Source of the DNA: Candidatus Omnitrophota bacterium | GTDB taxonomy: Bacteria > Omnitrophota > Gorgyraeia > Gygaellales > Profunditerraquicolaceae | DNA length: 64,000 bases | Direction of reading: 5' to 3' | Assembly (NCBI GenBank): GCA_041651115.1 | Contig: JBAZJY010000005.1 | Span: 6,405-70,404 of the forward strand | Shown here: one piece after another, positions 581 to 17,284 of the stretch | Layout: each line of letters begins with the position of its first letter | Numbering within the stretch: position 1 is the stretch's first letter | Translations under genes and position numbers: made by a program | Notes under the pieces: generated by a model | Databases searched by the model: none | What the model was told of the DNA's origin: nothing | The model's input: the letters and a program-made list of their open reading frames with translations, nothing else

Positions 581-638
581 ACGCACCCAAACCTAAAGGA
601 TGGTTTGGTGTGCACTTACTGTGCGAGGAGGTTTAAAA

Positions 639-1553
639 ATGAAACGCCTGATCTTATTTGTTGCGGCAGCGGGTTTTGTGTTTTGCGGCCTGACCGGCTG
701 CGACAAAATGAATTTTCTTAAGCCTAAAAAAGCCGAAGTTGTCAAGGAAAGCCCGGCGGCAGCCCCGGCAGTCGCCGTAAAGGGCCCGGTAGTCGCGAAA
801 GTAAATAATATGCCCATCGGGCTGGAAGACCTGAATCAGGAAGTGGAAAGTTATAATTCAATGGTGCCCGAAGAAAATCCGGAAATGAAGATTGTTACGC
901 GCGAGAAAAAACTGTCCTATCTAAAAGACGAAATGGTGCGCCGGATGCTGCTTTATCAGGCAGCTTTAGACCGCGGCCTTGACCGCAACGAAGACGTGGT
1001 AGACGCGCTGGCAAAGACCAAGATGGACCTCCTGGTAGTCTCTCTGGTCAAGCAGGAAGCCGATAAGATAAACGTGACCTCCAAAGATATCGAAGATTAT
1101 TATAATACTTATAAAGATCAGCTTAAAGAGCCGGAAGAAGTGAGCATCAGGGAAATAGTATTGGCCGGCGAGCCGGAAGCAAAAGACGTCCTGGTGCAGT
1201 TGCTCCAGGGTGGTGATTTTGCCACGCTGGCAAGAGAGCGCTCAAAAGGCAAGACCGCCAATAACGGCGGCGACCTGGGGTTTGTCGCGCTCGACGGTAT
1301 TTTTAAGGAAATGGCCAATGTTGCCGCTACTTTGGATGCCGGCCAGATCTCCAGCGTGTTCAAGGGCCCCGAGGGTTATTATATTATCAAGGTTGAGGCA
1401 AAGCGCGGCGGTAAGCAGAAAACACTCAATGAAATGTGGGATGATATCAAGCGCGGCCTGACTTTCTTAAAACAGCAGCAGCAGGTAGAAGATCTGATCG
1501 GTAAACTTTCCCGCCAGGCAAAGATAGAAGTTTACGAAGGAGAGATAAAGTAA
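639..1553 (+). CDS. parvulin-type peptidyl-prolyl cis-trans isomerase lipoprotein (PrsA/SurA-like)
   Basis: GAGGAGG RBS before the ATG at 639. Lipoprotein signal MKRLILFVAAAGFVFCGLTGC with an LTGC lipobox. C-terminal parvulin domain with a GGDLGFV motif and FKGPEGYYIIKV. Confidence 0.7.
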   Translation: MKRLILFVAAAGFVFCGLTGCDKMNFLKPKKAEVVKESPAAAPAVAVKGPVVAKVNNMPIGLEDLNQEVESYNSMVPEENPEMKIVTREKKLSYLKDEMVRRMLLYQAALDRGLDRNEDVVDALAKTKMDLLVVSLVKQEADKINVTSKDIEDYYNTYKDQLKEPEEVSIREIVLAGEPEAKDVLVQLLQGGDFATLARERSKGKTANNGGDLGFVALDGIFKEMANVAATLDAGQISSVFKGPEGYYIIKVEAKRGGKQKTLNEMWDDIKRGLTFLKQQQQVEDLIGKLSRQAKIEVYEGEIK

Positions 1554-2477
1554 ATGCGGAAAAAACTGCCTTTAATAATAGGTATAGTTTTGGCTTTAGT
1601 AGCCGCGTATCTGATAAAGGTTTATACTGACCAGCAGCGCCAGCTTATTATTGAGGACGCAAGAAAAAAGATAGAGAAGATAAGGACAGAACAGGTGCCG
1701 ATACTTATAGCGGCAAAGGACATCCCTAAAGGCGCGGTCATTGATAAAGAAAGCGTGGGCGTTGCCATTGCGCCTATACAGCATGTACAGCCCCAGGCGG
1801 CTACGTCATTGGACAGGGTTGCCGGTATGATCGCGGTTGTCCCTCTGTCAAAAGGCGAGCAGATCACCTTGAATAAATTAATGTCGTCCAAAGAAGCTGT
1901 GGGCACCGGCTCTCTGGCAATGACCACTCCTATAGGTAAAAGGGCGGTCACTATATCCGTAGATAATATTTCCGCAGTCGGAGGCATGATCTTACCGGGT
2001 GATTATATTGATGTATCGGTGATGATCAGCGTGCCGGTTACAAACCCGGACGGCAAACAGGTTTCGCAGCAAGCAGTTGTGCCTTTGTTTCAGAACATCC
2101 TCGTGCTTGCCGTAGGCCAGGAATTGGCTGCAATGCCTGAAGTGGCGGCAGAAGGCCGTTATGCCAAGAAAGGCAGCAAGCGGGAATTTTCTCCGGCAAT
2201 CACTTTGGCGCTTAGCCCCCAGGAAGCAAATGTCCTCGCTTTTGTCCAGGAGCAGGGAAAGATCCGCCTGTCCCTGCGTTCGCCTTCCGATGCCAAGATC
2301 GAATCAGTGCAACCGGCAAGCTGGGATAGCTTATTCCAGTATCTTATGCCGAAAGAAGAGTTGGAAGCGCAGGCAAGGCAGCGGCAGAAAAAACCCGAGG
2401 AGCCTGCCCCGGAACCGGAGTCATACGTGGAAGTATATAGAGGCTTAAATAAAGAAAAAGTTCCCCTGTTCAAGTGA
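1554..2477 (+). CDS. cpaB: Flp pilus assembly protein CpaB/RcpC
   Basis: N-terminal TM anchor (LPLIIGIVLALVAAYLI), an SAF-like domain (IAAKDIPKGAVIDKESV) and an RcpC-like region (NILVLAVGQ). First gene of a co-oriented Tad cluster. Confidence 0.7.
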   Translation: MRKKLPLIIGIVLALVAAYLIKVYTDQQRQLIIEDARKKIEKIRTEQVPILIAAKDIPKGAVIDKESVGVAIAPIQHVQPQAATSLDRVAGMIAVVPLSKGEQITLNKLMSSKEAVGTGSLAMTTPIGKRAVTISVDNISAVGGMILPGDYIDVSVMISVPVTNPDGKQVSQQAVVPLFQNILVLAVGQELAAMPEVAAEGRYAKKGSKREFSPAITLALSPQEANVLAFVQEQGKIRLSLRSPSDAKIESVQPASWDSLFQYLMPKEELEAQARQRQKKPEEPAPEPESYVEVYRGLNKEKVPLFK

Positions 2478-2487
2478 GGCCGATAAA

Positions 2488-4101
2488 ATGAGAAAGTCTT
2501 TCCTGTCAGTTATTTTGGTGCTTGCGGCAATAACGATGTTCCCTCTTCAGCAGTATGCTTCCGACAGCATAGACGAAGAAATAAAATTATATATGGGTGA
2601 ATTAAAAGTCATCCCGGTCAACGGTATTGCCCGCATTGCCATCGGTAATCCCGCAGTAGCCGACGTAGTTAACGTCGCTAAAACCGAAATAACCATTAGC
2701 CCCAAAGCCCCGGGAACAACCACTTTAGTTTACTGGGACCTTTACGGCGAGCAGTCGTATAAATTAAAAGTTTTTGCGGAAGATATCACAGAGGCAAAAC
2801 GCCGGGTGGATAATCTTTTATCAAAACTTGACCTGCCCGGAGTTTACGCCCAGGCAGAAGAAGACGAGGGAAAAGTATTATTGCTTGGCACGGTAAAGGA
2901 GCCCCAGGACCGCGAAAAGATCGCATTGGCATTAGGAACCTTAAAGGACAAGACAGTTGATCTTATTACCGTAAAGGAAGAAGAAACCGCAGTTGAGATA
3001 GACGTGCAGGTGTTAGAGTTGGATAAAGACGCTACCAAGACATTAGGCTTTACTAATCCTCTGCAGGGCACGACCAGCATTACCGAAGTCGGTTCAGATA
3101 GCCTGACTTCAGTTTGGTGGACCAGGATTTTCCGGGTGGCAAACGTTAAAAGAGATACGGCATTTAACTGGACCATTACGATGCTGGAGCAGGAAGGCAA
3201 AGCGCGCATACTTTCCCGTCCGCGGCTTGCCTGCCAGAGCGGTAAGGAAGCGGAATTGTCCATCGGCGGTGAAAAGCCGGTATTTACTACCGACGTTGCT
3301 TCCGCAGGCGGAGAAGGCACCAGCGTTGACTATAAAGAATTCGGGATCAAGCTAAAGATTAAGCCTACGGTAACCACGGATAACCGTATCAAAGTAGCGT
3401 TAAACGTGGAGATCAGCGAAGTCGGGGTAGCGGATACGATCGGCGCTGCTAACGCGCCCACGGCCAAGGCGTATCCCCTGACCAAGCGCACAGTATCTAC
3501 CGAGCTTTTCCTTGATGACGGCCAGACATTGGCAGTCGGAGGGTTGATCAAGCAAAAACAGGAAGAGAGCCTTACAAAAACCCCCTGGTTGGCAGACCTG
3601 CCGGTTGTGGGAGGGCTTTTCCGTAAAAGAAGCACGACAACAGGCGGCGGGTTCGGAGAAAAGGGCAATACCGAATTATTCATTACCCTTACGCCTAAGA
3701 TTGTCGGCAGGCAAATTGACGCTGCTTCCGGCCAAACAGAAAAAAGTGCGGCAGGTAAAAGCAGTATAACTTCTCCGGCGGCAGAATCTCTCATGGGTGA
3801 GAATGTGCCCGCCGAAATGAAAAGCTATGTCCGCATTATTCAGAAGCGCATCCTTGATAATATAAGCTATCCGGTTTCGGCAAAAGAAGCAGGTTTCCAG
3901 GGGACGGTAAAATTAAGCTTGCATTTGTCTTACCTTGGCCAGCTCATTGATGCTACGGTCAAACAGTCTTCGGGATACAAGATCCTCGACGACAATGCCG
4001 TTACCACGAGCCGCCAGTTGATTTCTTATCCGCCGTTTCCTCCCTCAATAGATAAGAAAGACCTGTGGATAGATATCCCGATACTATACCGCTTGGATTA
4101 A
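2488..4101 (+). CDS. cpaC: Tad secretin CpaC/RcpA with an extra C-terminal TonB_C-like domain
   Basis: Signal peptide. CpaC N-terminal domain (IPVNGIARIAIGNPAVADVVNV...TTLVYWD). Secretin domain (RPRLACQSGKEAELSIGGEKPV...LAVGGLIKQKQEE...TPWLADLPVVGGLFR...ELFITLTPKIV). The last ~90 aa (YPVSAKEAGFQGTVKLSLHLSYLGQLIDATVKQSSGYKILDDNAVTTSRQLISYPPFPP) fit the TonB C-terminal fold. Confidence 0.8.
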   Translation: MRKSFLSVILVLAAITMFPLQQYASDSIDEEIKLYMGELKVIPVNGIARIAIGNPAVADVVNVAKTEITISPKAPGTTTLVYWDLYGEQSYKLKVFAEDITEAKRRVDNLLSKLDLPGVYAQAEEDEGKVLLLGTVKEPQDREKIALALGTLKDKTVDLITVKEEETAVEIDVQVLELDKDATKTLGFTNPLQGTTSITEVGSDSLTSVWWTRIFRVANVKRDTAFNWTITMLEQEGKARILSRPRLACQSGKEAELSIGGEKPVFTTDVASAGGEGTSVDYKEFGIKLKIKPTVTTDNRIKVALNVEISEVGVADTIGAANAPTAKAYPLTKRTVSTELFLDDGQTLAVGGLIKQKQEESLTKTPWLADLPVVGGLFRKRSTTTGGGFGEKGNTELFITLTPKIVGRQIDAASGQTEKSAAGKSSITSPAAESLMGENVPAEMKSYVRIIQKRILDNISYPVSAKEAGFQGTVKLSLHLSYLGQLIDATVKQSSGYKILDDNAVTTSRQLISYPPFPPSIDKKDLWIDIPILYRLD

Positions 4102-4110
4102 AAACCGTAA

Positions 4111-6264
4111 ATGGCTAAGACAATAGTAGTATTCAGCACAAAAGGCGGCGTGGGTAAAACCCTGGTCGCCTCCAACCTTGCCGTATCATTGGCCAAGGAC
4201 CAGAACCAGCGGGTCTGCCTCCTGGATTTTGACCTCCAGGCGATCGGCGACATGTCGCGGATGCTCGGGCTTAACCCCGAAAGGTCGCTGGTAGATATGC
4301 TGGAGCCTTTGAAACAGCAAGGCGCTGATTTTAAAAAAGACCAGTTTTTCAACCGCAATGCTTTTGGAGTTGACTTCTTACCCGCAGTTTTAAAACCCCA
4401 GCATATCCCCAGCCTTAACCCCGAAGGAATAAGAAATGCCTTCAGCCTGCTGGATAAAGAGTACGATTATATCATCGTCGACGGCGGTAAAAGTTTTAAC
4501 GACGCTTTTATGGCGGCATTAAATCAAGCCAATCTTATCCTGTTGGTAATTACTCCGGATATTCTTTCCATATATCAAACTAAACTGGCATTTGATACGC
4601 TGCAGTTCCTGCATTTCCCGCTTTCAATGCTGCGCATCGTTTTAAACCGCGCTGAATCGCTGGCAAGCATCAGCTGGCAGGAGATCAGGGCAAATCTGCC
4701 CGTAGATATCGTTTCGCTTATTCCGTCGGAAGGCAGGGTCGTCGGCCAGGCAGTGAACCGCGGTATACCGGTTGTCGTTGATAATCCCCGCTCAAAGATT
4801 GGCCTGGCAATAAAGAAACTCGCCTTTGATGTTACTAAAGACAGCGGCCTGTTTATTGAGCGCCGTAATTTAGACGAGCTGCAGCTTAAGGAAGAGCCGT
4901 TTGAGAAGTCGGGCGACTTTTGGAAAAAACAGGGCCTCTCGGAAACAATCGCCGAATCCGCATATTCCGAAGAAAGGGATGAAATACAACTTTTAAAACG
5001 CAGGATCCATAACCGCTTGATTGATGAGCTTGATTTGAAACGGCTGGATCTGAAGGTCTTTTCCGACGCTAAGAAAAACAGAGAGATAAATGATAAAGCC
5101 GAGATCCTGGTTGCTAATCTTTTGGCGGATGAAGCCGGCAGCCTGATCTCTTCCCAGGAAGAGCGTAAGAAGATCGTCAAGGAAATCTTAAACGAAGCCT
5201 TGAGGCTCGGGCCCCTGGAAGATTTACTTGCTGACCCGGATGTCACCGACATCATGGTCAACAATAAGGATGAAGTTTACGTAGAACGCAGGGGAAGGAT
5301 TGAGCGGACTGATAAAAAATTCGTTTCCAATATTCAGGTAAAGACGGTTATTGAGCGTATTATTGCGCCCATCGGCAGGCGTATTGATGAAAGCGTTCCA
5401 ATGGTAGATGCCCGCCTGCCTGACGGTTCGCGCGTAAACGCGATCATCCCGCCGCTTTCGCTGACCGGCCCGGCGCTGACAATCAGAAAATTCCGCAAGG
5501 AAAGGTTTAAGATAGACGAGTTGATCGGGATGAACAGTTTAAATTCGGCAATGTCTATATTCTTACAGGCATGCGTAGCCTCGCGCAAAAATATCATTGT
5601 TTCAGGCGGCACAGGTTCCGGTAAAACTACGGTATTGAATGTCTTGTCCGGTTTTATTCCCGACCGGGAGCGCATTATCACCATTGAAGACGCGGCAGAA
5701 TTAAGGCTGCACCAGACCCATTGGATAAGGCTGGAATCACGGCCTCCGAATATTGAAGGAAAGGGCGCGGTGACCATCCGCGATCTTTTCCGTAATACCC
5801 TGCGTATGCGGCCGGACCGCATCATCATCGGCGAATGCCGCGGCATTGAGACATTAGACATGCTCCAGGCAATGAACACCGGCCACGACGGGTCTATGAC
5901 CACTATCCATGCCAATTCCACGTTTGATGCATTAACCAGGCTTGATTCAATGATCCTGATGTCCGGCGTGGACCTGCCGGTCAGGTCAATACGCGAGATG
6001 ATCGCTTCAGCGATTGATATGATTGTCCACACTGCGCGGCTTGCCGACGGCACGCGTAAGATTACCCAAGTAAGCGAGATCTCCGGTATGAAGGAAGACG
6101 GGCACATTGGGCTGCAGGATGTTTTTATGTTCAAGCAGACCGGCATTGACAAGCAACAGATGGCAATAGGTAATTTCTATGCTACCGGATATGTGCCATC
6201 GTTTATTGAAGAAATGAAAGTAAGAGGCATTGCCCTTCCCGAAGATCTCTTCAAAACCCCGTGA
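4111..6264 (+). CDS. fused CpaE/TadZ-like ParA-family ATPase (N-terminal) and CpaF/TadA secretion ATPase (C-terminal)
   Basis: N-terminal deviant Walker A KGGVGKT (MinD/ParA family, as in CpaE/TadZ). C-terminal half has Walker A GGTGSGKTT, RIITIEDAAEL, GHDGSMTTIHANS and a T2SSE-family His box. One continuous 717-aa ORF. Confidence 0.8.
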   Translation: MAKTIVVFSTKGGVGKTLVASNLAVSLAKDQNQRVCLLDFDLQAIGDMSRMLGLNPERSLVDMLEPLKQQGADFKKDQFFNRNAFGVDFLPAVLKPQHIPSLNPEGIRNAFSLLDKEYDYIIVDGGKSFNDAFMAALNQANLILLVITPDILSIYQTKLAFDTLQFLHFPLSMLRIVLNRAESLASISWQEIRANLPVDIVSLIPSEGRVVGQAVNRGIPVVVDNPRSKIGLAIKKLAFDVTKDSGLFIERRNLDELQLKEEPFEKSGDFWKKQGLSETIAESAYSEERDEIQLLKRRIHNRLIDELDLKRLDLKVFSDAKKNREINDKAEILVANLLADEAGSLISSQEERKKIVKEILNEALRLGPLEDLLADPDVTDIMVNNKDEVYVERRGRIERTDKKFVSNIQVKTVIERIIAPIGRRIDESVPMVDARLPDGSRVNAIIPPLSLTGPALTIRKFRKERFKIDELIGMNSLNSAMSIFLQACVASRKNIIVSGGTGSGKTTVLNVLSGFIPDRERIITIEDAAELRLHQTHWIRLESRPPNIEGKGAVTIRDLFRNTLRMRPDRIIIGECRGIETLDMLQAMNTGHDGSMTTIHANSTFDALTRLDSMILMSGVDLPVRSIREMIASAIDMIVHTARLADGTRKITQVSEISGMKEDGHIGLQDVFMFKQTGIDKQQMAIGNFYATGYVPSFIEEMKVRGIALPEDLFKTP

Positions 6265-6796: not shown

Positions 6797-8323
6797 ATGG
6801 GGGTTGTCCATAAATTAACACCGGAAGTCAGGCAATTTGTCCTTGAAAAAAAGCAGCTTAACCCGGAATTAAGCTGCCGGAAGATCAGTTCATTGGTTCT
6901 GGACAAATTCCAGTTCAAGCTCTCCAAGTCCAGCGCCAATGCCATATTTAAGGAAGCAGGTTTAAGCTTAGCCGTAGGCAGGCGGCGCAGCCGCGCTCCG
7001 CTGCCTAAATCTAAACCGTTTATTTATTCCGGCCTTGCGCTTTTTAAAGCCGCGGACAGTATGTTCGGCGGCTCCTTTCATATCAGCGAAGCAATAAAGC
7101 GCGTTGCCGGCGACCCGGATGCCGCGTTAAAAACTGAAAGCCTGCTTGAAGCGCATATCCTGAAGTCCGCGTTAGGCCTGCCGGTGAGTTGGCCTCAATC
7201 TTTTGCCGGAAGTCTTAACCGCAATTCCGGCCTGCTTTCAGAGATCAGCCAGGTATTAAAAAATATCAGCCAGGTCGCCGGCGGTGTTAAAGCCGTTACC
7301 ACCGACGGAAAAGAATTCTATCTTGACGGCCAACTGCACACGCTTTGGCAATCCTCTCAAATCCCGTCTGCGCTTTCCTGCCCTGCCCATAATTTAGAGC
7401 AGCGTATCCTGCAGCAGGCCAAAGGAAAACTGCCGTTCGTACTTTTTTTTGCCCCGGGATTTCGTGAGCCAACGCAGATGTTTTTTGATTTTATCCGCGG
7501 CTTCTCCGATACAGAAAAAAAATTTTCCCACTTCGTTGCGTATAATTATAACCTTGAAGAGCTCAAAAGTATAAAGCTTCCGGAGCCTGCAGGAATAATT
7601 TTCGGCATCTGGCCGTGGCAATTCAAGGAATATATAAAAATAAACGCTGTCTCCGGAATTAAAAAATTTGAATTTGCTCCGCTTAAAAAAGAATTTTTTA
7701 TCTCCGCGGTGGATGTTGAGCTTAAGCAGCCAAAACTGGATGCGACTTTGCATTTTAACGGCTGCCTGCTGAAAGCAAACGCGGAAGAAAAAACCGGTTT
7801 AATTGTTTTAGGCAGCCCGCAGCCCGCAGCTAGTGATCCTGCGGCCCTGGCTAAGGCTTACCTGGAGCATTGGCCTGACCCAACAGGCTCTTTTCAAAGC
7901 TTTAGCCGCAAGGTTGAGGCATCAACCAAGCAAAAAGATACGCAAGACAACGGGGAAGAGACCACATTGTCATTGCGAAGTGCCGCAGGCGCTGAAGCAA
8001 TCCCAATCCCCGGCCTCGATTCCTTACTTGATAACTATCTGAAAACATTAGAGTTATATGTTAGAGATAACCTGCTGCCGGGTAAATATTCAACTGAAAG
8101 CGCGACAATAATAAAAGAGCGTTTTTACCTGTTTGAGTGCGGCCTGACAAAAACAAAAGATAATCTATTTATAAATTTTAAACTTTCCCATGAAGCCGAT
8201 TCTATAAAAGACATTACCTATATCTGCAATCAGGTTAATGAAAAAATAATAATTATGCCTGACAGCCGCAGGCTTTGGCTGGCAGTTTGCTTAGAAAACG
8301 CTTTCCCGGAGGCAGGCAAATGA
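6797..8323 (+). CDS. hypothetical protein with N-terminal helix-turn-helix-like domain
   Basis: 508 aa. The first ~60 aa (LTPEVRQFVLEKKQLNPELSCRKISSLVLDKFQFKLSKSSANAIFKEAGL) look like a homeodomain / transposase-N-type HTH. The rest has no recognised domain. Sits directly downstream of the box pair and hairpin repeat. Confidence 0.5.
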   Translation: MGVVHKLTPEVRQFVLEKKQLNPELSCRKISSLVLDKFQFKLSKSSANAIFKEAGLSLAVGRRRSRAPLPKSKPFIYSGLALFKAADSMFGGSFHISEAIKRVAGDPDAALKTESLLEAHILKSALGLPVSWPQSFAGSLNRNSGLLSEISQVLKNISQVAGGVKAVTTDGKEFYLDGQLHTLWQSSQIPSALSCPAHNLEQRILQQAKGKLPFVLFFAPGFREPTQMFFDFIRGFSDTEKKFSHFVAYNYNLEELKSIKLPEPAGIIFGIWPWQFKEYIKINAVSGIKKFEFAPLKKEFFISAVDVELKQPKLDATLHFNGCLLKANAEEKTGLIVLGSPQPAASDPAALAKAYLEHWPDPTGSFQSFSRKVEASTKQKDTQDNGEETTLSLRSAAGAEAIPIPGLDSLLDNYLKTLELYVRDNLLPGKYSTESATIIKERFYLFECGLTKTKDNLFINFKLSHEADSIKDITYICNQVNEKIIIMPDSRRLWLAVCLENAFPEAGK

Positions 8324-8468: not shown

Positions 8469-8500
8469 GCAGCCGGCAGTATTCTGCCGGCTTTTTATTT
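8469..8500 (+). terminator. Rho-independent terminator-like hairpin just upstream of the first pilin gene
   Basis: Perfect 9-bp stem agccggcag / ctgccggct with loop tatt, followed by TTTTTATTT. It lies 10 nt before the pilin RBS (gggag), so it could also act as a 5'-UTR attenuator. Confidence 0.6.
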
Positions 8501-8510
8501 GGGAGTAAAA

Positions 8511-8834
8511 ATGATTTTTAAAAAAGCATTAAGCCAGAGTACCATTGAATATGTGTTGCTGGTGGCAATCACTATAATCGCGCTGGTGGTAGGAGCGAAT
8601 TTTGTTGATCAGATCAAGGGCGGTGCGTTTCAGGCGCATTTTGATGCGGCAAAACCCTTTGTAGCCGGGGAAACAGTTATCTATACCGCGCAGCCTGAGG
8701 CTCCAAGTAACACAGGCAGTACGGGAAATGTTCCGGCGGGCTGTGAATCCTGCCCCAATGATTGCCAATTGTGGCGGACCCAGGTGGGGCCGGATATGCA
8801 GACTTATTGGCGGTGCCCGCCGAACAGAGGATGA
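8511..8834 (+). CDS. Flp-type pilin paralog P1 with a 4-Cys C-terminal extension
   Basis: GGGAG RBS. Class-III leader MIFKKALSQSTIEY followed by the hydrophobic helix VLLVAITIIALVVGA. C-terminus GCESCPNDC...WRCPP. Confidence 0.6.
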   Translation: MIFKKALSQSTIEYVLLVAITIIALVVGANFVDQIKGGAFQAHFDAAKPFVAGETVIYTAQPEAPSNTGSTGNVPAGCESCPNDCQLWRTQVGPDMQTYWRCPPNRG

Positions 8835-8835
8835 G

Positions 8836-9306
8836 ATGATAGATCTGTTAAAGACGACAAGAAAACTAGCCCAGAGCCTTATTGAATACGTGATGATCTT
8901 TGCGATCGTCGCTGCGGCGCTGGGGGTAACTTATAAATATGTTTACCGTTCAATGAACGCGCGTTTGGATGATATACAGGATGTGGTAACTCCTGACCGG
9001 CCTGACGGCGGCAATTGGGATCTGCCCGACGTTGATCCGCCGGATGATCCTGAGCCGCCGAATACGGATTTAGAGAGTTGCCTTGCCGGTAATGACGCGG
9101 AATGTAACCAGCGTTTACAAGAAGGCATAGAATATTGTTGCGTGGAGTGTTGCGGCGCTGTTATGGCTGCTTGTAATGCTAATCCAAGCGACAGCGGTAT
9201 TTGTAACCCGGGTGCTCCCAGTAATGGTTGCCGCTATCCAGAGATTACCAATTGTCAGCAAAGCGGTGAGGCCCAGAGGGATATTTGCTGCGAGAATAAA
9301 TATTAA
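8836..9306 (+). CDS. Flp-type pilin paralog P2 with a 12-Cys C-terminal domain
   Basis: ATG 1 nt after the P1 stop. Leader MIDLLKTTRKLAQSLIEY plus VMIFAIVAAALGV. Pro/Asp-rich linker, then 12 Cys including CC pairs (YCCVECCG, DICCENKY). Confidence 0.6.
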   Translation: MIDLLKTTRKLAQSLIEYVMIFAIVAAALGVTYKYVYRSMNARLDDIQDVVTPDRPDGGNWDLPDVDPPDDPEPPNTDLESCLAGNDAECNQRLQEGIEYCCVECCGAVMAACNANPSDSGICNPGAPSNGCRYPEITNCQQSGEAQRDICCENKY

Positions 9307-9322
9307 CGCGGGTAAAGAAAAG

Positions 9323-9841
9323 ATGAAGAGACCTTACAGATTAGCCCAGAGTCTTATTGAATACGTGATGATCTTTGTGATCGTCGCTGCGGCAGTAGGG
9401 GTAACTTATAAATATATTTATCGCGCAATAAACGCGCGCTTAAAAAACACGCAGGATGAGCTGAACTATAGCCGTTCTGTTGAGGGAGTGGAAGCAGATG
9501 AGTATAATGACGGCAGCGGAGATAAAATTGAGACTTCTGTCGGGAATACTCGTCCGGGCTGTGAGTCTTGCCCGGATAATTGTCGGTCGCGGGTAGTAGC
9601 AACAGGCCGCGGCGGACCTAGTGCGGGTAATTGGGGGGTTGAGTGGTATTGCGCACCGGCTACAGGCGGAAACACAGGTGGAGATACAGGCGGAAACACA
9701 GGTGGAGATACAGGCGGAAACACAGGTGGAGATACCGGCGGTGACACAGGTGGGAATACCGGTGGTTGTCCTGCCGGCTCGCATCGGGTTTGTCATCCAT
9801 GCGGCCGCGGGGATACTTGTTGTAATTGCGTAGGCAATTAA
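9323..9841 (+). CDS. Flp-type pilin paralog P3 with Gly-rich repeats and a 10-Cys C-terminal domain
   Basis: Leader MKRPYRLAQSLIEY plus VMIFVIVAAAVGV. GCESCPDNC motif shared with P1. (GGNTGGDTGG)n repeat encoded by a 30-nt DNA tandem repeat. C-terminal CPAGSHRVCHPCGRGDTCCNC. Confidence 0.6.
   Translation: MKRPYRLAQSLIEYVMIFVIVAAAVGVTYKYIYRAINARLKNTQDELNYSRSVEGVEADEYNDGSGDKIETSVGNTRPGCESCPDNCRSRVVATGRGGPSAGNWGVEWYCAPATGGNTGGDTGGNTGGDTGGNTGGDTGGDTGGNTGGCPAGSHRVCHPCGRGDTCCNCVGN
9655..9765 (+). repeat. 30-nt tandem repeat (about 3.5 copies) inside pilin P3, encoding (GGNTGGDTGG)n
   Basis: acaggcggaaacacaggtggagat acaggcggaaacacaggtggagat acaggcggaaacacaggtggagataccggcggtgacacaggtgggaat. Confidence 0.8.
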
Positions 9842-10114: not shown

Positions 10115-10507
10115 ATGTTTCTAAGGAAGAAAGGACAATCTACTGCCGAATACGCGATTGTCATCGGCTTAGTGATTGCCGTGGCAGCAGGCATACTTCA
10201 GGTTGCCTTAAAAGGCGGCATCCGGCAGAAGAATAAACAGGCTACGGATTATTTGGTTGGTGAGAATGACGGCACAGACGGCGGTGCAGGCGGCTACGCG
10301 GCAATGAACGCCCAGATCGCATTAGGTGATCCTGCTGAACTCTACACCCAGGAAATGCGCGATACTACGGTTTTAGGCGGAGATGCCAACTACGTAGATG
10401 AAAGCGTAATGCTTAAAGGCGGAGCAGAGGAAAGACGGCAGAAGCAGGTTACCGAGACAACAGCTGTCAGCGTAGAGGCTATTGAAGGCGTAACAACGGG
10501 GAATTAA
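10115..10507 (+). CDS. Flp-type pilin paralog P5
   Basis: AAGGAGGT RBS. MFLRKKGQSTAEY plus AIVIGLVIAVAAGILQ. Confidence 0.7.
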   Translation: MFLRKKGQSTAEYAIVIGLVIAVAAGILQVALKGGIRQKNKQATDYLVGENDGTDGGAGGYAAMNAQIALGDPAELYTQEMRDTTVLGGDANYVDESVMLKGGAEERRQKQVTETTAVSVEAIEGVTTGN

Positions 10508-10548
10508 ACCGTACCGTAGATCAAAAAGTCATAGGGAGGTGAGCAATA

Positions 10549-11004
10549 ATGTTAAGGCGCAATAGTGGTCAATCAATAGTGGAGTACGCTATTCTTTTAG
10601 GCGTAATCATCGCGGCCTTATTGATCATGCAGGCATTCATCAAAAGAGGCTATCAGGGCGGCCTGAAAGATTCCGCGGACAAGATGGGCGAGCAGTTTTC
10701 CGCAGGAAATACCACAATCAAACAGGCAAGGACAATGGCAGAGGATCAAACTATCAGGGAAGCAGTGGCAACTGATGATGAAATAGCGCTGTTTACCGGC
10801 GACGTAGGCATAGCAGACGTACCGCGTACGCTTGACGCAGGCGCTTATTCTTATAGCGAGCGCAGCCCGGTGGAAATAGCTTCTACCACGCACGTAGTAA
10901 CTGACAGCGCTGATCAGGAAGCAACAAGAAAAGACGCATACGCTAATGTGCAAGTGACCAACTTTCAGTTTGTCAGTCCTGATAGTGATTTTGAAAGGCC
11001 GTAA
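10549..11004 (+). CDS. Flp-type pilin paralog P6
   Basis: GGGAGGTG RBS. MLRRNSGQSIVEY plus AILLGVIIAALLIMQ. Confidence 0.7.
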   Translation: MLRRNSGQSIVEYAILLGVIIAALLIMQAFIKRGYQGGLKDSADKMGEQFSAGNTTIKQARTMAEDQTIREAVATDDEIALFTGDVGIADVPRTLDAGAYSYSERSPVEIASTTHVVTDSADQEATRKDAYANVQVTNFQFVSPDSDFERP

Positions 11005-11017
11005 TAAGGTGGAAAAA

Positions 11018-11209
11018 ATGAAAAGACCCCTTAAGAGAGGACAGAGTATTCTTGAATACGCCCTGCTTTTGGGCGCGATAATCGCAGTGATCGTCGCAGC
11101 TTTACTGGGCAGAGGCGGTATCCAGAGTAAGGTGAGGAATAGTTATGATACTTTCGGAGATGCGATTGAGAGCACGACAACTGATCTAACAAGCAGTGTA
11201 TTTAGATAA
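11018..11209 (+). CDS. canonical short Flp pilin P7 (paralog of P4)
   Basis: AAGGTGG RBS. MKRPLKRGQSILEY plus ALLLGAIIAVIVAALLG. 64 aa. Confidence 0.75.
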   Translation: MKRPLKRGQSILEYALLLGAIIAVIVAALLGRGGIQSKVRNSYDTFGDAIESTTTDLTSSVFR

Positions 11210-11221
11210 GGAGGTAGTAAA

Positions 11222-11581
11222 ATGTTTCTAAGGAAGAAAGGACAATCTACTGCCGAATACGCGATTGTCATCGGCTTAGTGATTGCCGTGGCAGCAGGCA
11301 TACTTCAGGTTGCCTTAAAAGGCGGCATCCGGCAGAAGAATAAAAAAGCAGTGGATTTCTTAGTCGGCGCAGGCAATGACGTTGCTGCCTTTAGCAATGC
11401 CGCGTCCACAGACATCCAACTCTACACCCAGGAAATGCGCGATACTACGGTTTTAGGCGGAGATGCCAACTACGTAGATGAAAGCGTAATGCTTAAAGGC
11501 GGAGCAGAGGAAAGACGGCAGAAGCAGGTTACCGAGACAACAGCTGTCAGCGTAGAAACAATTGACGCTGCAGGACAATAA
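11222..11581 (+). CDS. Flp-type pilin paralog P8 (duplicate of P5)
   Basis: RBS and first ~40 aa identical to P5, and the C-terminal ~45 aa are near-identical. The middle segment has diverged. Confidence 0.7.
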   Translation: MFLRKKGQSTAEYAIVIGLVIAVAAGILQVALKGGIRQKNKKAVDFLVGAGNDVAAFSNAASTDIQLYTQEMRDTTVLGGDANYVDESVMLKGGAEERRQKQVTETTAVSVETIDAAGQ

Positions 11582-11603
11582 AAAATTAGGGAGGTGAGCA
11601 ATA

Positions 11604-12059
11604 ATGTTAAGGCGCAATAGTGGTCAATCAATAGTGGAGTACGCTATTCTTTTAGGCGTAATCATCGCGGCCTTATTGATCATGCAGGCATTCATCAAAA
11701 GAGGCTATCAGGGCGGCCTGAAAGATTCCGCGGACAAGATGGGCGAGCAATATTCTGCCGGCGGAACAACGATCCATAAAAGGAACGCGTTAGGCGCGGG
11801 AGGCCAGCAGATCGTAGAAGAAGTAGCGACAGTAGACGGGTCATCGCCGCTTGCTACTCTTAGCGGGCTTACGCCGGTAGGCACAATCGGCGGCGGAAAG
11901 AGCGCCTATTCTCTGAATACCAGGACAGGCGATACGATGACCTCAACCACAAAAGTGGATACTGACGATGCCCGGCACGAAGCGACAAGAGTGGCGGATT
12001 ACGGCGATGTGTCCAGTTCGGGAGGTAATTTCGCGCTGAGCGATAACGTTGATTTTTAA
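11604..12059 (+). CDS. Flp-type pilin paralog P9 (duplicate of P6)
   Basis: RBS and first ~55 aa identical to P6. The C-terminal half has diverged. Confidence 0.7.
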   Translation: MLRRNSGQSIVEYAILLGVIIAALLIMQAFIKRGYQGGLKDSADKMGEQYSAGGTTIHKRNALGAGGQQIVEEVATVDGSSPLATLSGLTPVGTIGGGKSAYSLNTRTGDTMTSTTKVDTDDARHEATRVADYGDVSSSGGNFALSDNVDF

Positions 12060-12409: not shown

Positions 12410-12764
12410 GGCATGCCGCAACAGCGGCTATAGCGTAGTGATGTGGGCAGCAATGTTTGCCGTAATGGTGGGCATGGTGCTTTTTTTCCGCACGCCGATA
12501 AAACGGGCGATGCAGGGGAAAATAAACGATATGGCTGATTATATGTTTTGGACCAAATGGGGCCAGGCGCGTGAGCAATATAAGGGCGATGACACCGGTT
12601 ATACCAAGACAGATACTACCACCATTTCAAGAACAGAACTGGCAGACCGGAGAGGATTTGTTACTTCGGCAATGGATATTTCCGTAGGCGACAGCACCTC
12701 AACTACCGGCGTGAATGACGGGGATCAGGACGCATTGAAAAGCATTGACCTTAACGCTATTTAG
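12384..12764 (+). CDS. degenerate pilin-like paralog, possible pseudogene
   Basis: RNSGYSVVMWAAMFAVMVGMVLFF aligns to RNSGQSIVEYAILLGVIIAALLIM of P6/P9 but the EY is lost, there is no in-frame ATG with an RBS (TTG/GTG only), and it overlaps the P10 stop. IKRAMQGKINDMADYM is conserved with paralogs. Confidence 0.3.
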   Translation: MIPLLPRGRACRNSGYSVVMWAAMFAVMVGMVLFFRTPIKRAMQGKINDMADYMFWTKWGQAREQYKGDDTGYTKTDTTTISRTELADRRGFVTSAMDISVGDSTSTTGVNDGDQDALKSIDLNAI

Positions 12765-12771
12765 CCATAAA

Positions 12772-13584
12772 ATGAAAAAGAATAGGCATAACGATCATAA
12801 AATAATGGGTCAGGCAGCAGTTGAGCTGGCTATTTTCGGCAGTCTGGTGGTATTGGCTTTTTCTGTCCTTATAATGTACGGCCAGCGTTTTGACAACCAG
12901 CAGGAAATAAAAATGGAAGCGTTCCGTCGTGCCCTGCAAAAAGCTTATGAGCGTAATTCAAGCGTAAGTTATACCTATAAAAAAGAAGGCCGTAACTTGA
13001 ACCTTTTCGGCGCGTTTGGCCGCGGCCAGCCCTCTACCGTAGTTTCCACGGCCAGCGTAATGTGGCAAAAAGGCGTATCCGGCGAGCAGGACAGCAGCGG
13101 AAAAGAAAACTTCGCTTATTACCGGATCAACGACTATATGGTAGGCGATGAGATGGGCCTTCCGCGTTATCCTAAACACGTAGAAAGCCTTAGCGGCAAA
13201 AAGGAAAGGGTCCGGGTGCCTGCCAGCGTTTATTCCGAGGAAACGGAAAGAACAGAGATTTACGGTTCCAGCGTAGGCAAGCGCGAGAGCGCTGCGAGCA
13301 TAATTAATACCGCGACTTCCGACTTGACCGATACCGTTTATACAAAATTGCATGTGCGCGTTGACCATTCATACGACGACAATCCTCATGACAATTCAGT
13401 GCCCTTACCGGACTATGCGTATGAAGATCACAGCTATGATAACGAAGGTTCGCAAACAGTCCAATCCGTGCCGGGGGTTTCTCTTGGCGCTTACTCTAAG
13501 GATGCTACCAATCGCGTGAGCTACCGCCAAGATCAGGTTGGCACAACCATTCACCGCGAAAGGACATGGCAAACTGATAATTAA
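12772..13584 (+). CDS. TadE/TadF-like pseudopilin
   Basis: N-terminus GQAAVELAIFGSLVVLAF matches the TadE-like signature (G-x-x-x-VE-F/L-A plus a hydrophobic helix). ~270 aa is typical of TadE/TadF. Confidence 0.55.
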   Translation: MKKNRHNDHKIMGQAAVELAIFGSLVVLAFSVLIMYGQRFDNQQEIKMEAFRRALQKAYERNSSVSYTYKKEGRNLNLFGAFGRGQPSTVVSTASVMWQKGVSGEQDSSGKENFAYYRINDYMVGDEMGLPRYPKHVESLSGKKERVRVPASVYSEETERTEIYGSSVGKRESAASIINTATSDLTDTVYTKLHVRVDHSYDDNPHDNSVPLPDYAYEDHSYDNEGSQTVQSVPGVSLGAYSKDATNRVSYRQDQVGTTIHRERTWQTDN

Positions 13585-13585
13585 T

Positions 13586-15082
13586 ATGAGATCTAAAAAG
13601 TCCCAGTCAATTTTTGATTACACACTTGCCTTTATTGCCTTGGCAGCGCTGGTAGTGGGCATTGTCCGCACCTGGGTCTGGTTCAACGCCAACTATGCCA
13701 AGCGCCAGATGGCTTATCAGACCAGTCGTATTGTTGCCGGCGGCCGCACCTGGCTTGAAGATACCCCAACGGCTTTTGATACTCCTTACGAGGTTCCTTA
13801 TGATATCGGCGCTACCCAGGAAAGCCCCAGCCGTATTTATCAACCCCTTCCTTTGAATAATAACTGGGTATTCGGCGGTCTGGCTTCAGGCAGCACAGGC
13901 GTTGCTGTTGTCGGCGGAGAAGACTGGGTCGGCGGTTTAGGCGCCTGCGGGGACCAATGCACCCAAGAGTGCATTGGTGACACAGCGTGTTATTCAGGAG
14001 TCGGAGATTTTAACACCCTTTGCAGCTGTTACCAGGCTTGTTTTTCAGAATGTAATTGTTTAAGGCAGATATCGCCCATGACCACTCTCTATGCGTCGCA
14101 AATAAGGGATATTTGCGGCCCGGATAACGATTGTAATGTTTCTACTTGCGTTTATTCCGATTGTGAAACTACTGCCGGCTGCGGTCTTGCCTGTAATATG
14201 CGCTGGAGCGCGCAGAGGATGCGGGATGCCGCAGAGCGCTGCGATGACTTTTGGGACGGGCCGTGCAACTGGTTTGGCGGCGGAAGGTCAGCCAGGCAGC
14301 TTAGAGCAGCGGCAAAAGAACTTATCAGGATGGCCTGGCAGCAGGAAATGGGAGCAAGGTTGTCAGGGCGTTCTTCCGTGCGTTTACAGCGTTGCTGTGA
14401 GATGCAGACTGATCTTTTAGCAGCGCAGTGCATGGAAACCGCGCAGAGTACAAATGAATGCGATGCCAATTGCCTGGAGGCCGCTATTGATGTTTTTTAT
14501 GCATGCGTAGAGCGGGGAGTTGATATGGGAATGGTTACCGTTCATCTTGACGGCCCTTGTTTTGTAGAAGCGGAAATCCATAATACTTTTTGCGCTGTTG
14601 CATGCATGACCGGGGAAAACGTACCTTGCGAGGACAAAGTAACGACGCACATTAACGGCTTAAATAGTCAGATAGATGCTTATGAACAGATTATTGAAGA
14701 TAATGAAGATCTTGTAGAAGAAATAGGGGATGTGCTTGCGCAGGCCGCAGCTGCTGCAAGCACAGCTTGTGCTTATAGCAATGATACTTCCTGTTATGCC
14801 GCGGCAAGAAACGATTACTGCATGAACAACTGTTGCCGGGGAGGGGCTTGGGGCAGGGCTTGCGATGAGCCTGCGGAAAACTGCGATAATTGCGCGGGAG
14901 ATGAGTCTTGTCCTGCGTGCGGGCTTTCCCAGCTTAGCGCCAATGTCCAGGCTCAAAATGAAAACTTTGAAGAGGCGATATTAGCGATGCAGGAGGCGAT
15001 CGCGGCTTTGCCGGCCTGCTGCGATGAAGCCGTTGCGATCGTGCAGGACAGGTGCATCAGTAATATAATCAATAACCTATAA
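13586..15082 (+). CDS. Flp/TadE-like prepilin N-terminus fused to a ~400-aa domain with about 40 cysteines
   Basis: MRSKKSQSIFDY plus TLAFIALAALVVGIV, then a domain dense in C-x-x-x-C and CC motifs (GACGDQCTQECIGDTACY, CSCYQACFSECNC, CMNNCCRGG, ENCDNCAGDESCPACG). Confidence 0.6.
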   Translation: MRSKKSQSIFDYTLAFIALAALVVGIVRTWVWFNANYAKRQMAYQTSRIVAGGRTWLEDTPTAFDTPYEVPYDIGATQESPSRIYQPLPLNNNWVFGGLASGSTGVAVVGGEDWVGGLGACGDQCTQECIGDTACYSGVGDFNTLCSCYQACFSECNCLRQISPMTTLYASQIRDICGPDNDCNVSTCVYSDCETTAGCGLACNMRWSAQRMRDAAERCDDFWDGPCNWFGGGRSARQLRAAAKELIRMAWQQEMGARLSGRSSVRLQRCCEMQTDLLAAQCMETAQSTNECDANCLEAAIDVFYACVERGVDMGMVTVHLDGPCFVEAEIHNTFCAVACMTGENVPCEDKVTTHINGLNSQIDAYEQIIEDNEDLVEEIGDVLAQAAAAASTACAYSNDTSCYAAARNDYCMNNCCRGGAWGRACDEPAENCDNCAGDESCPACGLSQLSANVQAQNENFEEAILAMQEAIAALPACCDEAVAIVQDRCISNIINNL

Positions 15083-15099: not shown

Positions 15100-16428
15100 A
15101 TGATCAAGATATCCCGGAATAAAGCGCGTTATGAAAAAGGCCAGATATTCCCGTTTCTTATTGCCGTATTGGTAGTCATTTTGATCGCAATAATGATTAC
15201 GGTCAACCTTGGCCAAGTCGGGATGCTTAAGGTTGATACATCCAATGCGGCAGATGCCGGAGCGCTTGCCGCGGCCAGCACTTTAAGCGGTTATTTGTTG
15301 GGTTTTGGCCTAAAAAGCGATTTTATGGAAGCGCATATGATCACTACCGAAATCTGGGCGGTGATTAACTTTCTGGTGCATTGCGGGGATGGGCCTTATG
15401 GCTGGATAGTCGGACTGGTCCTGGCGCTTATCACCCATATCGCCGGCATGATCAAGAACTTCATAGAATATTTTATCGCGCTCACCGAAGGTAAAATGGC
15501 TTGGGGCCAGGCGAAAAAAACTGCTTTTCAGTATGCTTTTCAAAACGCCGGGGTAGATGAGGTGCGGCCGACTTTCCGGCAGTTCCTGGAGGGCGTATAT
15601 GGGATTTCCGGCGATGAAATAAACGATGTTTCGCCGGCAGACATGGCGCATTACTACAATGTTTATTCCATTGGCGATGATCCCAATAACGCCGGCTTAA
15701 GAAGCCTGATAAAGCAATATACGCAAACCGGATTTAACAAATATATGGAAGAAGCCAGGTATTGGAGATGGGGAAAGATCGCGCCGTGGGAAGGGACTTT
15801 TCCGCCGCGCGTGACTTCCGGTTACGGGTGGAATGATGATGGCACAAACGTCTGTACGGGCAGTAATGATTGCAGGGTTAATGAAGGCGAAGCGTATAAA
15901 AATTACGAAAACTGGGTAGAAGTTGAAATAATGGGTAACATAATGTATCCCCTTGATATATACAGCCCGCTTGCCGAACTTTTTGAAGCGGCCAGGGACC
16001 GGATCCTTGATGCGATTGAAGATGCAGATATGTGGGGCTGGGTAGAAGATATAGCCGATTTCGTCGTCAATCTGATATTCGGAATTACTGCCGGATCTAC
16101 GCAATTTACTTTTCCCGCCGGCTTGGAAATGAGCCCCATAGTGCCCAATACAAGACAAAATCCCATGCATGTCTGGGTCAGGCGCTACAAGAAGAATAAA
16201 GATATTGGACTATGGAATTTTGATTATGGAACCAGCGAATCGTATGCCCAGGGACGCGCTTTTGGCGAAAGAGGAACTGAAGATATTACGCCTGCATTAA
16301 GCGGCCAGATATCGGGATTTATAACCCAATGGATTGACAGCGGAGATAAGCCGGAAGTAGATGACATGTATGACATGTTTGATACCAGTCAGCATTTGTT
16401 TGAAACCGAAATTTCATACGCGAGGTAG
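15100..16428 (+). CDS. TadG-like pilus assembly protein
   Basis: KGQIFPFLIAVLVVILIAIMITVNLGQVGMLKVDTSNAADAGALAAASTL matches the TadE/G-like N-terminal signature (hydrophobic helix, then VD...A.DAAALAAA). Confidence 0.6.
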   Translation: MIKISRNKARYEKGQIFPFLIAVLVVILIAIMITVNLGQVGMLKVDTSNAADAGALAAASTLSGYLLGFGLKSDFMEAHMITTEIWAVINFLVHCGDGPYGWIVGLVLALITHIAGMIKNFIEYFIALTEGKMAWGQAKKTAFQYAFQNAGVDEVRPTFRQFLEGVYGISGDEINDVSPADMAHYYNVYSIGDDPNNAGLRSLIKQYTQTGFNKYMEEARYWRWGKIAPWEGTFPPRVTSGYGWNDDGTNVCTGSNDCRVNEGEAYKNYENWVEVEIMGNIMYPLDIYSPLAELFEAARDRILDAIEDADMWGWVEDIADFVVNLIFGITAGSTQFTFPAGLEMSPIVPNTRQNPMHVWVRRYKKNKDIGLWNFDYGTSESYAQGRAFGERGTEDITPALSGQISGFITQWIDSGDKPEVDDMYDMFDTSQHLFETEISYAR

Positions 16429-16432
16429 AACT

Positions 16433-17284
16433 ATGCTTAGACAAAAGAATATCTTGATTGCGGCAGTTGTTTTAGCATTGATCACGGTATTTTGCCTGCC
16501 CGGTTTTGCGCAAGCCAATGTTGATTTTGAAGTGCCGGTGCCCGAAGGCAGTAGTTTAGTAGAAGATAGGGATATTGCTATGGGGGGCAGGCAGATAAAG
16601 ATAAAGGTTTATACTGCTCCCGTGAGCAGCGCAGCCATCCTGGGCTATTACCGGAGTTTTTTCAGCCAACAGGGGTTCCAGAAAATCCTGGATAAACCCG
16701 AACCGGAGTTAAACAAGCACCTCTTGCGTTTTAAGCAAGGTGATGCGGTAGTTGCCATCGGTGTCTTGAATAAGCCCGGGATAAACAAGATAGTGATTGC
16801 CCGTTATTTGCAGAAAGCCGGCCAGCTTCCTCCGGAAAAATCCGGCGTTTCTTTGACGGAGCTTTTTTCTATGGTGCCGAAAAAAGAGGCTGCAGGCAAG
16901 GATTTGGCAGCTGTGCCCCGCCCGGATAATAGTATCAGGGCGGCTTTTACGGAGCGCGGCGATCATACGCAGCTTTTGTATATCGCGCCGATGAACGCAG
17001 TATCCGTAGTTGATTTTTACAAGAAAGAAATGGAAGCCCAGGGATGGGAGTTAAAAAGGGAGGTTCTCGGCTCTGAAGGCCTGGGTGCTTACGGGATAGC
17101 TAAAGAAGACGCCTTTACCCCGGAAAATCCTATTCTTGAAAGGCCGGGCCATAAGCAGGTCATCCAGGAGATGTCTATACTTGAGTTCAGCGCTGATTTT
17201 GGCGACGCGGAAATAACTATTTTACCGGATCCCAGCCAGGCCCCTGCTGGTTCCGTAATTAAAATTGAGTACGATGAAAAATGA
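16433..17284 (+). CDS. secreted hypothetical protein with an internally duplicated ~110-aa domain
   Basis: GAGG RBS. Signal peptide MLRQKNILIAAVVLALITVFCLPGFAQA. Two similar halves (ILGYYRSFFSQQGFQKI and VVDFYKKEMEAQGWEL). No recognised family. Confidence 0.5.
   Translation: MLRQKNILIAAVVLALITVFCLPGFAQANVDFEVPVPEGSSLVEDRDIAMGGRQIKIKVYTAPVSSAAILGYYRSFFSQQGFQKILDKPEPELNKHLLRFKQGDAVVAIGVLNKPGINKIVIARYLQKAGQLPPEKSGVSLTELFSMVPKKEAAGKDLAAVPRPDNSIRAAFTERGDHTQLLYIAPMNAVSVVDFYKKEMEAQGWELKREVLGSEGLGAYGIAKEDAFTPENPILERPGHKQVIQEMSILEFSADFGDAEITILPDPSQAPAGSVIKIEYDEK

Follow-up and report, generated by a model that had tools for sequence, protein, structure and literature searches.

A TonB/TolA-type C-terminal domain on the Tad-type secretin of a giant-gene-associated locus in Omnitrophota

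The targeting, anchoring and connection of secretins differ between systems, and the case of the Tad secretins is still being worked out, their partners having been resolved recently (TadD in 2023, PMC10499894; CpaD and CpaI in 2026, PMC13170226). Here, we describe a Tad-type secretin gene located in a 64,000-nucleotide stretch of DNA (hereafter the window) from Candidatus Omnitrophota bacterium (assembly GCA_041651115.1, contig JBAZJY010000005.1, positions 6,405 to 70,404 of the forward strand). The product of this gene ends in a domain of the TonB/TolA C-terminal type (TonB_C). The locus contains genes for a peptidyl-prolyl isomerase (PPIase), CpaB/RcpC, the secretin, a ParA-T2SSE ATPase, a DUF192 protein, a run of Flp-like pilins, a TadE/G-like protein, two T2SSF platform proteins and two PsbP-like lipoproteins, followed by giant open reading frames (ORFs).

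Domain architecture of the secretin and fold of its tail

The features of the secretin gene are listed below. The model confidence is the predicted local distance difference test (pLDDT) of AlphaFold2, and aa stands for amino acids.

2488..4101, + strand: Tad-type secretin gene with a C-terminal TonB_C, a single uninterrupted ORF of 537 aa plus stop (Pfam PF13629, PF00263 and PF03544)
2488..2562, + strand: Sec signal peptide, about residues 1-25, MRKSFLSVILVLAAITMFPLQQYAS, without a lipobox Cys (sequence inspection; the cleavage site is putative)
2575..2772, + strand: N-terminal beta-sandwich T2SS-T3SS_pil_N, the Tad-secretin N-domain, residues 30-95 (PF13629, E 1e-12; all-beta in AlphaFold2, pLDDT 85-89)
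2779..2982, + strand: second periplasmic alpha/beta domain, BON/N1-like, ring-building, residues ~98-165 (AlphaFold2, pLDDT 85-89)
3184..3705, + strand: Secretin domain, residues 233-406, ending in ...ELFITLTPKIV (PF00263, E 2.2e-39, profile positions 2-168 of 169)
3706..3822, + strand: disordered linker, residues ~407-445, at the S-domain position of other Tad secretins (pLDDT ~35 at 410-433)
3823..4098, + strand: TonB/TolA-type C-terminal domain, residues 446-537 (PF03544, TIGR01352, AlphaFold2 and fold matches)

The translated ORF is identical over its full length (100%) to a database protein titled 'MAG: TonB family protein [Candidatus Omnitrophota bacterium]' (P0001; MAG, metagenome-assembled genome). 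Its PF00263 domain is preceded by PF13629, which is the arrangement of the RcpA/CpaC type, and the homologues are named 'pilus assembly protein CpaC' by the Joint Genome Institute. The NCBIfam equivalogs for GspD, PilQ and SctC matched the secretin core only, with scores far below their cut-offs; the GspD model TIGR02517 scored 133 bits (cut-off 351) over residues 201-413. The likeness to RcpA/CpaC comprises the signal peptide, the PF13629 beta-sandwich and the secretin domain, and extends to the neighbouring genes, with CpaB/RcpC, CpaE/F-type ATPases, TadB/C, TadE/G-like proteins and Flp-type pilins alongside. The signal peptide region was modelled as a helix (2-17) followed by a low-confidence stretch (19-28). 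The second periplasmic domain consists of a helix (100-114), strands (119-136), a further helix (139-155) and a strand (156-162), and its BON match at residues 123-163 was weak and below the cut-off (E 0.035).

A first-pass annotation made from the letters alone had read the secretin domain as ending at ELFITLTPKIV, with about 130 aa of TonB_C-like sequence behind it. This reading was borne out: the PF00263 match ends at residue 406, leaving 131 further residues, and the motifs quoted from the tail (YP...A, GFQGTVKLSL, SSGYKILDDNA and PPFPP) are all present at correctly given coordinates, 3800-4101 corresponding to residues ~438-537 plus the stop codon. The YP lies at residues 461-462 and PPFPP at 515-519. 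In the Pfam search, PF03544 matched residues 458-536 with an E-value of 6.7e-14 and 52.5 bits against a gathering threshold of 24.6, spanning profile positions 2-79 of 79, and the NCBIfam model TIGR01352 (tonB_Cterm) scored 46.4 bits against a cut-off of 27.1.

The full-length AlphaFold2 model, built on 50 homologues, had a mean pLDDT of 75, with the N-domains and the secretin core well modelled. Residues 440-537 form a folded domain with a pLDDT of 82-93, which rules out an unstructured tail, and residues 410-433 before it are disordered (~35). The domain comprises a helix at 442-458, a short helix at 463-468, strands at 472-481 and 486-493, a helix at 498-510 and a strand at 525-534. When the isolated tail was modelled (pLDDT 78.5), the top 25 Foldseek matches in the PDB were exclusively the C-terminal domains (CTDs) of TonB, TolA(-III), HasB and FusB, with template modelling (TM) scores of 0.41-0.79 when normalised to the target and up to 0.72 when normalised to the query. 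The closest folds were those of the Helicobacter pylori TonB-CTD (6sly and 5lw8, TM 0.68-0.79), and several of the neighbours had been solved with a partner strand bound (2gsk, 2grx, 6s3w and 6i97). The fold search was required here, as the tail sequence alone gave only marginal matches to the PDB (E ~0.1). With the TonB, TolA, HasB and FusB domains (PF03544/PF13103/PF06519), the tail shares the YP motif and a strand-strand-helix-strand core with a preceding helix, at TM 0.6-0.79. The full-length model matched solved secretins, among them RcpA (8odn) and the TsaP-PilQ structure 6ve2, and also the N-terminal domains of VirB9; the VirB9 likeness of the N-domain has been published for RcpA (PMC10499894). 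The tail thus has a true TonB_C/TolA-III fold and is joined in frame to a secretin of the Tad type.

Conservation of the fusion across Omnitrophota

We then considered how widely the fusion occurs. Among the best 120 clusters at 90% identity, which are 49-100% identical to the query, every one carries PF13629, PF00263 and PF03544. An exhaustive HMMER search with query residues 330-537 against 1.84 billion cluster representatives returned 301 matches below 1e-10. Purpose-built domain hidden Markov models found both the secretin end and TonB_C in 141 of the best 150 cluster representatives at 50% identity, and the remaining members of this set look like fragments or multi-TonB_C proteins. Identity over the query region falls to 32% among the fused representatives, and a Pfam scan of seven divergent members confirmed the architecture in all four that bear a secretin.

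Genomes of the Genome Taxonomy Database (GTDB), scanned with one genome per species, gave 165 confirmed relatives, 80 of which were kept as loci. In these 80 loci the match spans essentially residues 1-537 of the query, almost all running through to 535-537. Their titles, belonging to MAGs and single-cell genomes, read Omnitrophota, Omnitrophica, 'bacterium' or 'uncultured Planctomycetales'. The title 'uncultured Planctomycetales bacterium' stands on many species-representative MAGs with an Omnitrophota-type locus (L004, L005, L015, L021, L022 and others), and probably reflects how submitters labelled their genomes, not an actual presence of the locus in Planctomycetota.

The more divergent members vary in their tails. 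A tandem pair of TonB_C domains or a linker of 100-356 aa was found among P0131, P0140, P0145, P0148, P0152, P0171, P0176, P0204, P0209 and P0243. The last of these represents the most divergent clade probed, a protein of ~1045 aa with two TonB_C domains and a coiled-coil-like, E/K/R-rich linker of ~190 aa, whose named relatives are Omnitrophica. Past this clade, the match list continues with Tad secretins without the fusion, from Armatimonadetes, Acidobacteria and Proteobacteria. All named matches with the fusion are Omnitrophota or Omnitrophica, except for one 'bacterium' and one short contig labelled 'Candidatus Hydrothermarchaeota archaeon'. This contig, in the P0243 cluster, was probably mis-binned, since its close relatives are Omnitrophica. 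There was no clear case of the fusion in another phylum among the matches listed. On this sequence evidence, the secretin-TonB_C fusion appears to be a conserved trait across much of Omnitrophota rather than a one-off.

The first-pass annotation had further held that Tad secretins are not normally fused to this fold. A plasmid control supports this, because none of 1281 secretin-matching records spans the TonB_C region (458-536), the matches ending by residue 434 and in one case at 470; RcpA and CpaC have a short coil S-domain (PMC10499894, PMC13170226).

In an alignment of 50 sequences, the secretin core was the most conserved region (mean pairwise identity 0.70), followed by TonB_C (0.59) and the two N-domains (0.57 and 0.58). 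The signal peptide was the least conserved structured part (0.27), and the linker fell to 0.14. Twelve TonB_C residues are invariant among the 50 homologues, namely Y461, P462, A465, G472, G484, S495, G496, Y497, D501, P515, F517 and P518. Across 259 homologues the linker measures 16-356 aa with a median of 34, is rich in E, A, K, S and P, and is very poorly conserved. Judged from these alignments, the constraint on TonB_C is comparable with that on the other periplasmic domains of the machine, and for the tether nothing but its presence is under constraint.

The giant-gene-associated locus

A conserved T2SS-like locus (T2SS standing for type II secretion system) upstream of the giant genes of Omnitrophota, with gspD, gspE, gspF, rcpC and a Rotamase_2 PPIase, has been described by West-Roberts et al. 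(bioRxiv 10.1101/2023.11.21.568195), and the Tad complex of Omnitrophota was discussed by Seymour et al. (PMC10066038). The window locus is this giant-gene-associated T2SS-like/Tad locus. Besides the secretin, it contains the following features.

600..1553, + strand: lipoprotein SurA/PrsA-like PPIase, opening gene of the conserved operon (matches to Rotamase_2 and Rotamase, and a weak one to SurA_N)
1554..2477, + strand: CpaB/RcpC alignment protein, inner-membrane anchored, directly upstream of the secretin (PF16976 RcpC plus SAF; present in 78 of 80 loci)
2421..2474, + strand: conserved C-terminal tail of CpaB, ...SYVEVYRGLNKEKVPLFK, kept across the loci examined
4111..6264, + strand: fused CpaE/TadZ-like ParA ATPase and CpaF/TadA-like secretion ATPase, 717 aa, directly downstream of the secretin (AAA_31/CbiA/ParA at residues 3-184, T2SSE at 366-645)
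8499-9841, + strand: three overlapping or adjacent pilin-like ORFs with Cys-rich C-termini
10115-10507 with 10549-11004, and 11222-11581 with 11604-12059, + strand: tandem duplication of a two-gene Flp-like pilin cassette
19488-20024 and 20071-20601, + strand: two paralogous PsbP/Mog1-like lipoproteins between tadC and the first giant gene (Pfam just below cut-off; signals LAGC and LCSC)
21562-29109, + strand: giant ORF of 2515 aa without a Pfam match
~29.1 kb to 64000, + strand: giant open frame of at least 11,500 codons, running off the window end

The Tad character of the locus is given by RcpC, the ParA-type and T2SSE ATPase, two T2SSF proteins and a TadE/G-like protein, together with several short proteins with Flp-like N-termini. 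The ParA-T2SSE protein was found in 78 of the 80 related loci; whereas the ParA/MinD-type ATPase and the secretion ATPase are separate in model Tad systems, they form one 717-aa protein in the Omnitrophota locus. Also unlike canonical Tad loci, which have no PPIase gene, the Omnitrophota locus begins with one, and the order PPIase-CpaB-secretin is colinear in 74/74 loci. The genes upstream of the PPIase differ between the two long loci examined, with no conserved upstream partner gene there, so the PPIase gene seems to be the operon's first. Both the window protein and 24 of the 25 listed homologues have a lipobox ...GC(D/E)K, with GCG in the remaining one, and this conservation marks the PPIase as a lipoprotein. 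By the rules of E. coli, Asp or Glu at position +2 leads to retention in the inner membrane; these rules are possibly not valid in Omnitrophota.

CpaB ends in a variable charged/Pro linker followed by the tail (E/S)YVE(I/V)YRGLNKE(K/R)VPL(S/F)K. The duplicated pilin cassettes (10115-12059) have nearly identical N-terminal halves and diverged C-terminal halves, and the pilin-like ORF at 9176-9841 (+) holds a run of GG(N/D)TGG repeats. The two PsbP-like lipoproteins may be accessory proteins of the outer membrane; in the window they lie further out than the 10-kb flanks covered in the related loci. No Pfam match was obtained for the locus proteins at 6797-8323, 12745-13584, 13538-15082 and 16361-17284. 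The giant ORFs of the window fit the published giant genes of Omnitrophota.

Possible roles of the tethered domain and their meaning

The C-terminal domains of TonB and TolA bind by strand addition, a short strand of the target joining their sheet at its edge, and the force in these systems comes from an N-terminal membrane helix seated in ExbBD or TolQR. The first of these properties is the basis of the reading that we favour, to which we give a probability of about one half: the tail would be a tethered periplasmic docking module that anchors, positions or stabilises the pore, and thus a binding module, not an energy transducer. The short-coil S-domain of other Tad secretins would be replaced here by a disordered tether plus the TonB/TolA-type domain. 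With roughly 12-14 subunits per secretin, a ring of TonB_C domains would hang off the barrel's outer wall at the periplasmic face of the outer membrane, and each domain would act passively, its edge strand pairing with a short beta-strand 'box' on a partner. This partner could be a protein or lipoprotein close to the outer membrane, or else the layer of the cell wall. A tether between the secretin and peptidoglycan or a partner, as suggested in the first-pass annotation, is a plausible hypothesis.

The position of the tail points to this role. In RcpA of Pseudomonas aeruginosa, the C-terminus is a coil S-domain of ~35 aa outside the barrel, the final four residues of which bind the pilotin TadD (PMC10499894). 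In Caulobacter, the OmpA-like lipoprotein CpaD forms a belt round the barrel and ties the secretin to peptidoglycan (PMC13170226). Both proteins perform in trans the task proposed here for the tail. The Omnitrophota tail sits at the sequence position of the RcpA S-domain, and because it would emerge where the S-domain and the CpaD belt act, we read it as a tethered docking module. The Omnitrophota C-terminus differs from that of RcpA/CpaC in consisting of a tether and a folded domain of ~90 aa, and Pfam detected no TPR or OmpA-like protein (TadD- or CpaD-like) among the 15 locus ORFs scanned. A tether of the median length of 34 aa would reach ~12 nm at most, and the shortest ~6 nm, which would favour a partner near the outer membrane or at the level of the wall over one in the inner membrane.

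The same kind of domain is also found on another channel of this phylum. P0275, a protein of 1183 aa in the 90%-identity cluster of P0168 (MBN2119841.1, Candidatus Omnitrophica), starts with a signal peptide, has TonB_C six times in tandem and ends in a TolC-like OEP domain. Its TonB_C domains are of the secretin-tail subtype, being 27-34% identical to it, with the N-terminal helix in common and a Pro/Phe-rich motif that is closely similar, PYPFPF in place of the PPFPP of the window protein. The occurrence of TonB_C on both a secretin and a TolC-like channel suggests that, in Omnitrophota, it generally serves as an accessory of outer-membrane channels. Together with an FCB-group Wzi-like barrel, this protein represents secreted TonB_C on an outer-membrane barrel or channel; these fusions involve different channel families and attach TonB_C at the N-terminus, whereas the Omnitrophota secretin carries it at the C-terminus. 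A precedent for lineage-specific anchoring modules is provided by the Tad secretins of Armatimonadetes and of unnamed origin (P0354, P0358, P0367, P0380 and P0385), which carry LysM in cis in the order LysM-PF13629-BON-Secretin. These LysM secretins, which stand among the nearest relatives without the fusion, the AMIN domain of PilQ and TsaP (LysM) on PilQ are likewise lineage-specific accessory domains that tie a secretin to the envelope. However, they are N-terminal or act in trans and are established peptidoglycan binders, while the Omnitrophota module is C-terminal, flexibly tethered and of a strand-binding fold.

Several points weigh against a docking role. The docking partner is still hypothetical, and the binding of peptidoglycan by TonB-type domains is contested. 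The periplasmic location of the domain is one that we infer by analogy with other secretins. Genes of the TadD or CpaD kind could be located at another site in the genome or have diverged beyond the reach of Pfam, and an analogue of TadD, CpaD or CpaI could hide among the four locus proteins that have no match. In some homologues, the linkers of 100-356 aa or the two tandem domains could reach much deeper into the periplasm. Finally, the conserved tail of CpaB, a candidate for the partner, also exists in the CpaB of systems that lack the fusion. As a specific partner of TonB_C this tail, which had resembled a TonB box carried by an inner-membrane protein, was demoted, since CpaB of Ralstonia and Sinorhizobium has a similar one and the secretins there have no TonB_C; the tail thus predates the fusion. 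For Caulobacter, the C-terminal beta-hairpin tail of CpaB has been modelled onto the beta-sandwich of CpaI (PMC13170226).

Energy coupling, which the first-pass annotation had also raised, is not supported for the window protein. TonB, TolA, HasB and FusB are inner-membrane-anchored, motor-bound proteins that span the periplasm, their C-terminal domains reaching up to the outer membrane. The Omnitrophota secretin reverses this polarity, hanging TonB_C from an outer-membrane channel. Its N-terminus is a cleavable signal peptide followed by PF13629 and the secretin domain, with no motor-binding helix (SHLS-type motif), and no other hydrophobic helix is present in the AlphaFold2 secondary structure. 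The linker does not have the character of a domain II either, being ~40 aa long, not especially Pro-rich (~9%) and attached to an outer-membrane domain, and many homologues have linkers of 16-34 aa, too short for the inner membrane. Among the 15 locus ORFs scanned with Pfam, there was no gene for ExbB, ExbD, TolQ, TolR or a TonB-dependent receptor, and a target bearing a TonB box was not identified. With a strand-binding domain present but the motor-seated membrane helix missing, the window secretin cannot itself be an energy transducer.

Force could still come from outside if the TonB_C of the secretin paired with the CTD or box of a true TonB/TolA-ExbBD/TolQR system in the inner membrane and the proton motive force thereby opened or remodelled the pore for very large cargo. 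Besides the homology to the C-terminal domains of force transducers and the linkers of 100-356 aa in some homologues, this would agree with the TonB-type proteins that are genetically tied to secretin or type IV pilus assembly in trans (the TonB-like GspB/ExeB, TonB3 of P. aeruginosa and TonB2 of Acinetobacter baumannii), but these are separate inner-membrane proteins, and none is fused to a secretin. The window protein lacks both membrane anchor and motor-binding segment, the scanned locus lacks the motor genes, and a median linker of 34 aa would not span the periplasm. A 2026 preprint that surveyed complete Omnitrophota genomes, 176 in number, found canonical TonB-dependent receptor clusters absent from its collection. 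We regard this as the least supported reading and as very improbable. A link of reversed polarity, in which the tethered TonB_C ring grips a box on an inner-membrane partner energised by the proton motive force, or on the giant cargo itself, so that the secretin gate is pulled open or held in register, is a similarly remote prospect.

Alternatively, the domain could serve assembly alone, as a built-in pilotin receptor: during export it would bind, for a time, a chaperone or lipoprotein that helps to steer or fold the secretin into the outer membrane, and it would be dispensable thereafter. TonB_C does occupy the S-domain position, which is the pilotin site of other secretins, and the locus offers candidates in the two PsbP-like lipoproteins and in the PPIase lipoprotein, the first operon gene, colinear with the secretin in all 74 loci and foreign to canonical Tad loci. 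The Asp or Glu at +2 in most of the listed PPIase homologues would, by the E. coli rules, hold that protein at the inner membrane, and the tandem TonB_C domains, like the presence of TonB_C on a TolC-like protein, are more in keeping with a lasting structural role, so we consider assembly as the sole function unlikely. It is rather unlikely, too, that the ring recruits a substrate or a part of the machine by capturing a TonB-box-like strand (in the giant proteins, the pilins or the CpaB tail), thereby concentrating it or linking the inner-membrane platform. TonB-type domains do bind short N-terminal target strands in PDB complexes, the locus is conserved upstream of giant genes, and CpaB has its strongly conserved, strand-like tail behind a variable linker in the loci examined. 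However, that tail is ancestral, its modelled receptor elsewhere is a beta-sandwich of the PF13629 type that the window secretin already has at its N-terminus, the TonB_C tail would exit outside the barrel and not into the substrate lumen, and a box motif was not identified in the giant proteins. If instead the TonB_C domains bound each other or the outer wall of the secretin, they would form a stabilising collar without any external partner. The high local concentration of 12-14 copies per pore, the tandem duplications in several lineages and the crystallisation of some TonB C-terminal fragments as dimers (1u07) speak for such self-association, yet the full-length monomer model shows no confident docking (predicted TM score 0.39, with a disordered linker) and so variable a linker length is unusual for a fixed collar; on balance we find it improbable.

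The component families were already known and the locus published, and automated annotation shows the domain combination. We found no description of TonB_C on a secretin in the searchable literature, including an evolutionary survey of TonB/TolA transducers, and the word 'TonB' is absent from West-Roberts et al. and Seymour et al. In the 2026 preprint, giant genes are flanked by two genes listed as 'TonB C-terminal domain', which were treated as unrelated to secretion; these genes may be secretins of the window type. The automated NCBI name for the secretin family, 'TonB family protein', hides the pore of the system, with the risk that it is miscounted as TonB or nutrient-uptake capacity.

The finding adds settings that are anchored in the outer membrane and have no motor to the known uses of the TonB_C fold, and a soluble, expressible domain of ~90 aa gives a handle on the envelope partner of the machine. 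Its significance would rise sharply if that partner were cargo or motor: a reverse-polarity link, if true, would be the first force-coupled or cargo-gated secretin, exporting proteins that range from several thousand residues to above ten thousand. For the Omnitrophota, which are ultra-small and probably predatory or parasitic, it means that a TonB/TolA-type domain has been joined to the secretin in a locus presumed to serve the largest bacterial proteins known.

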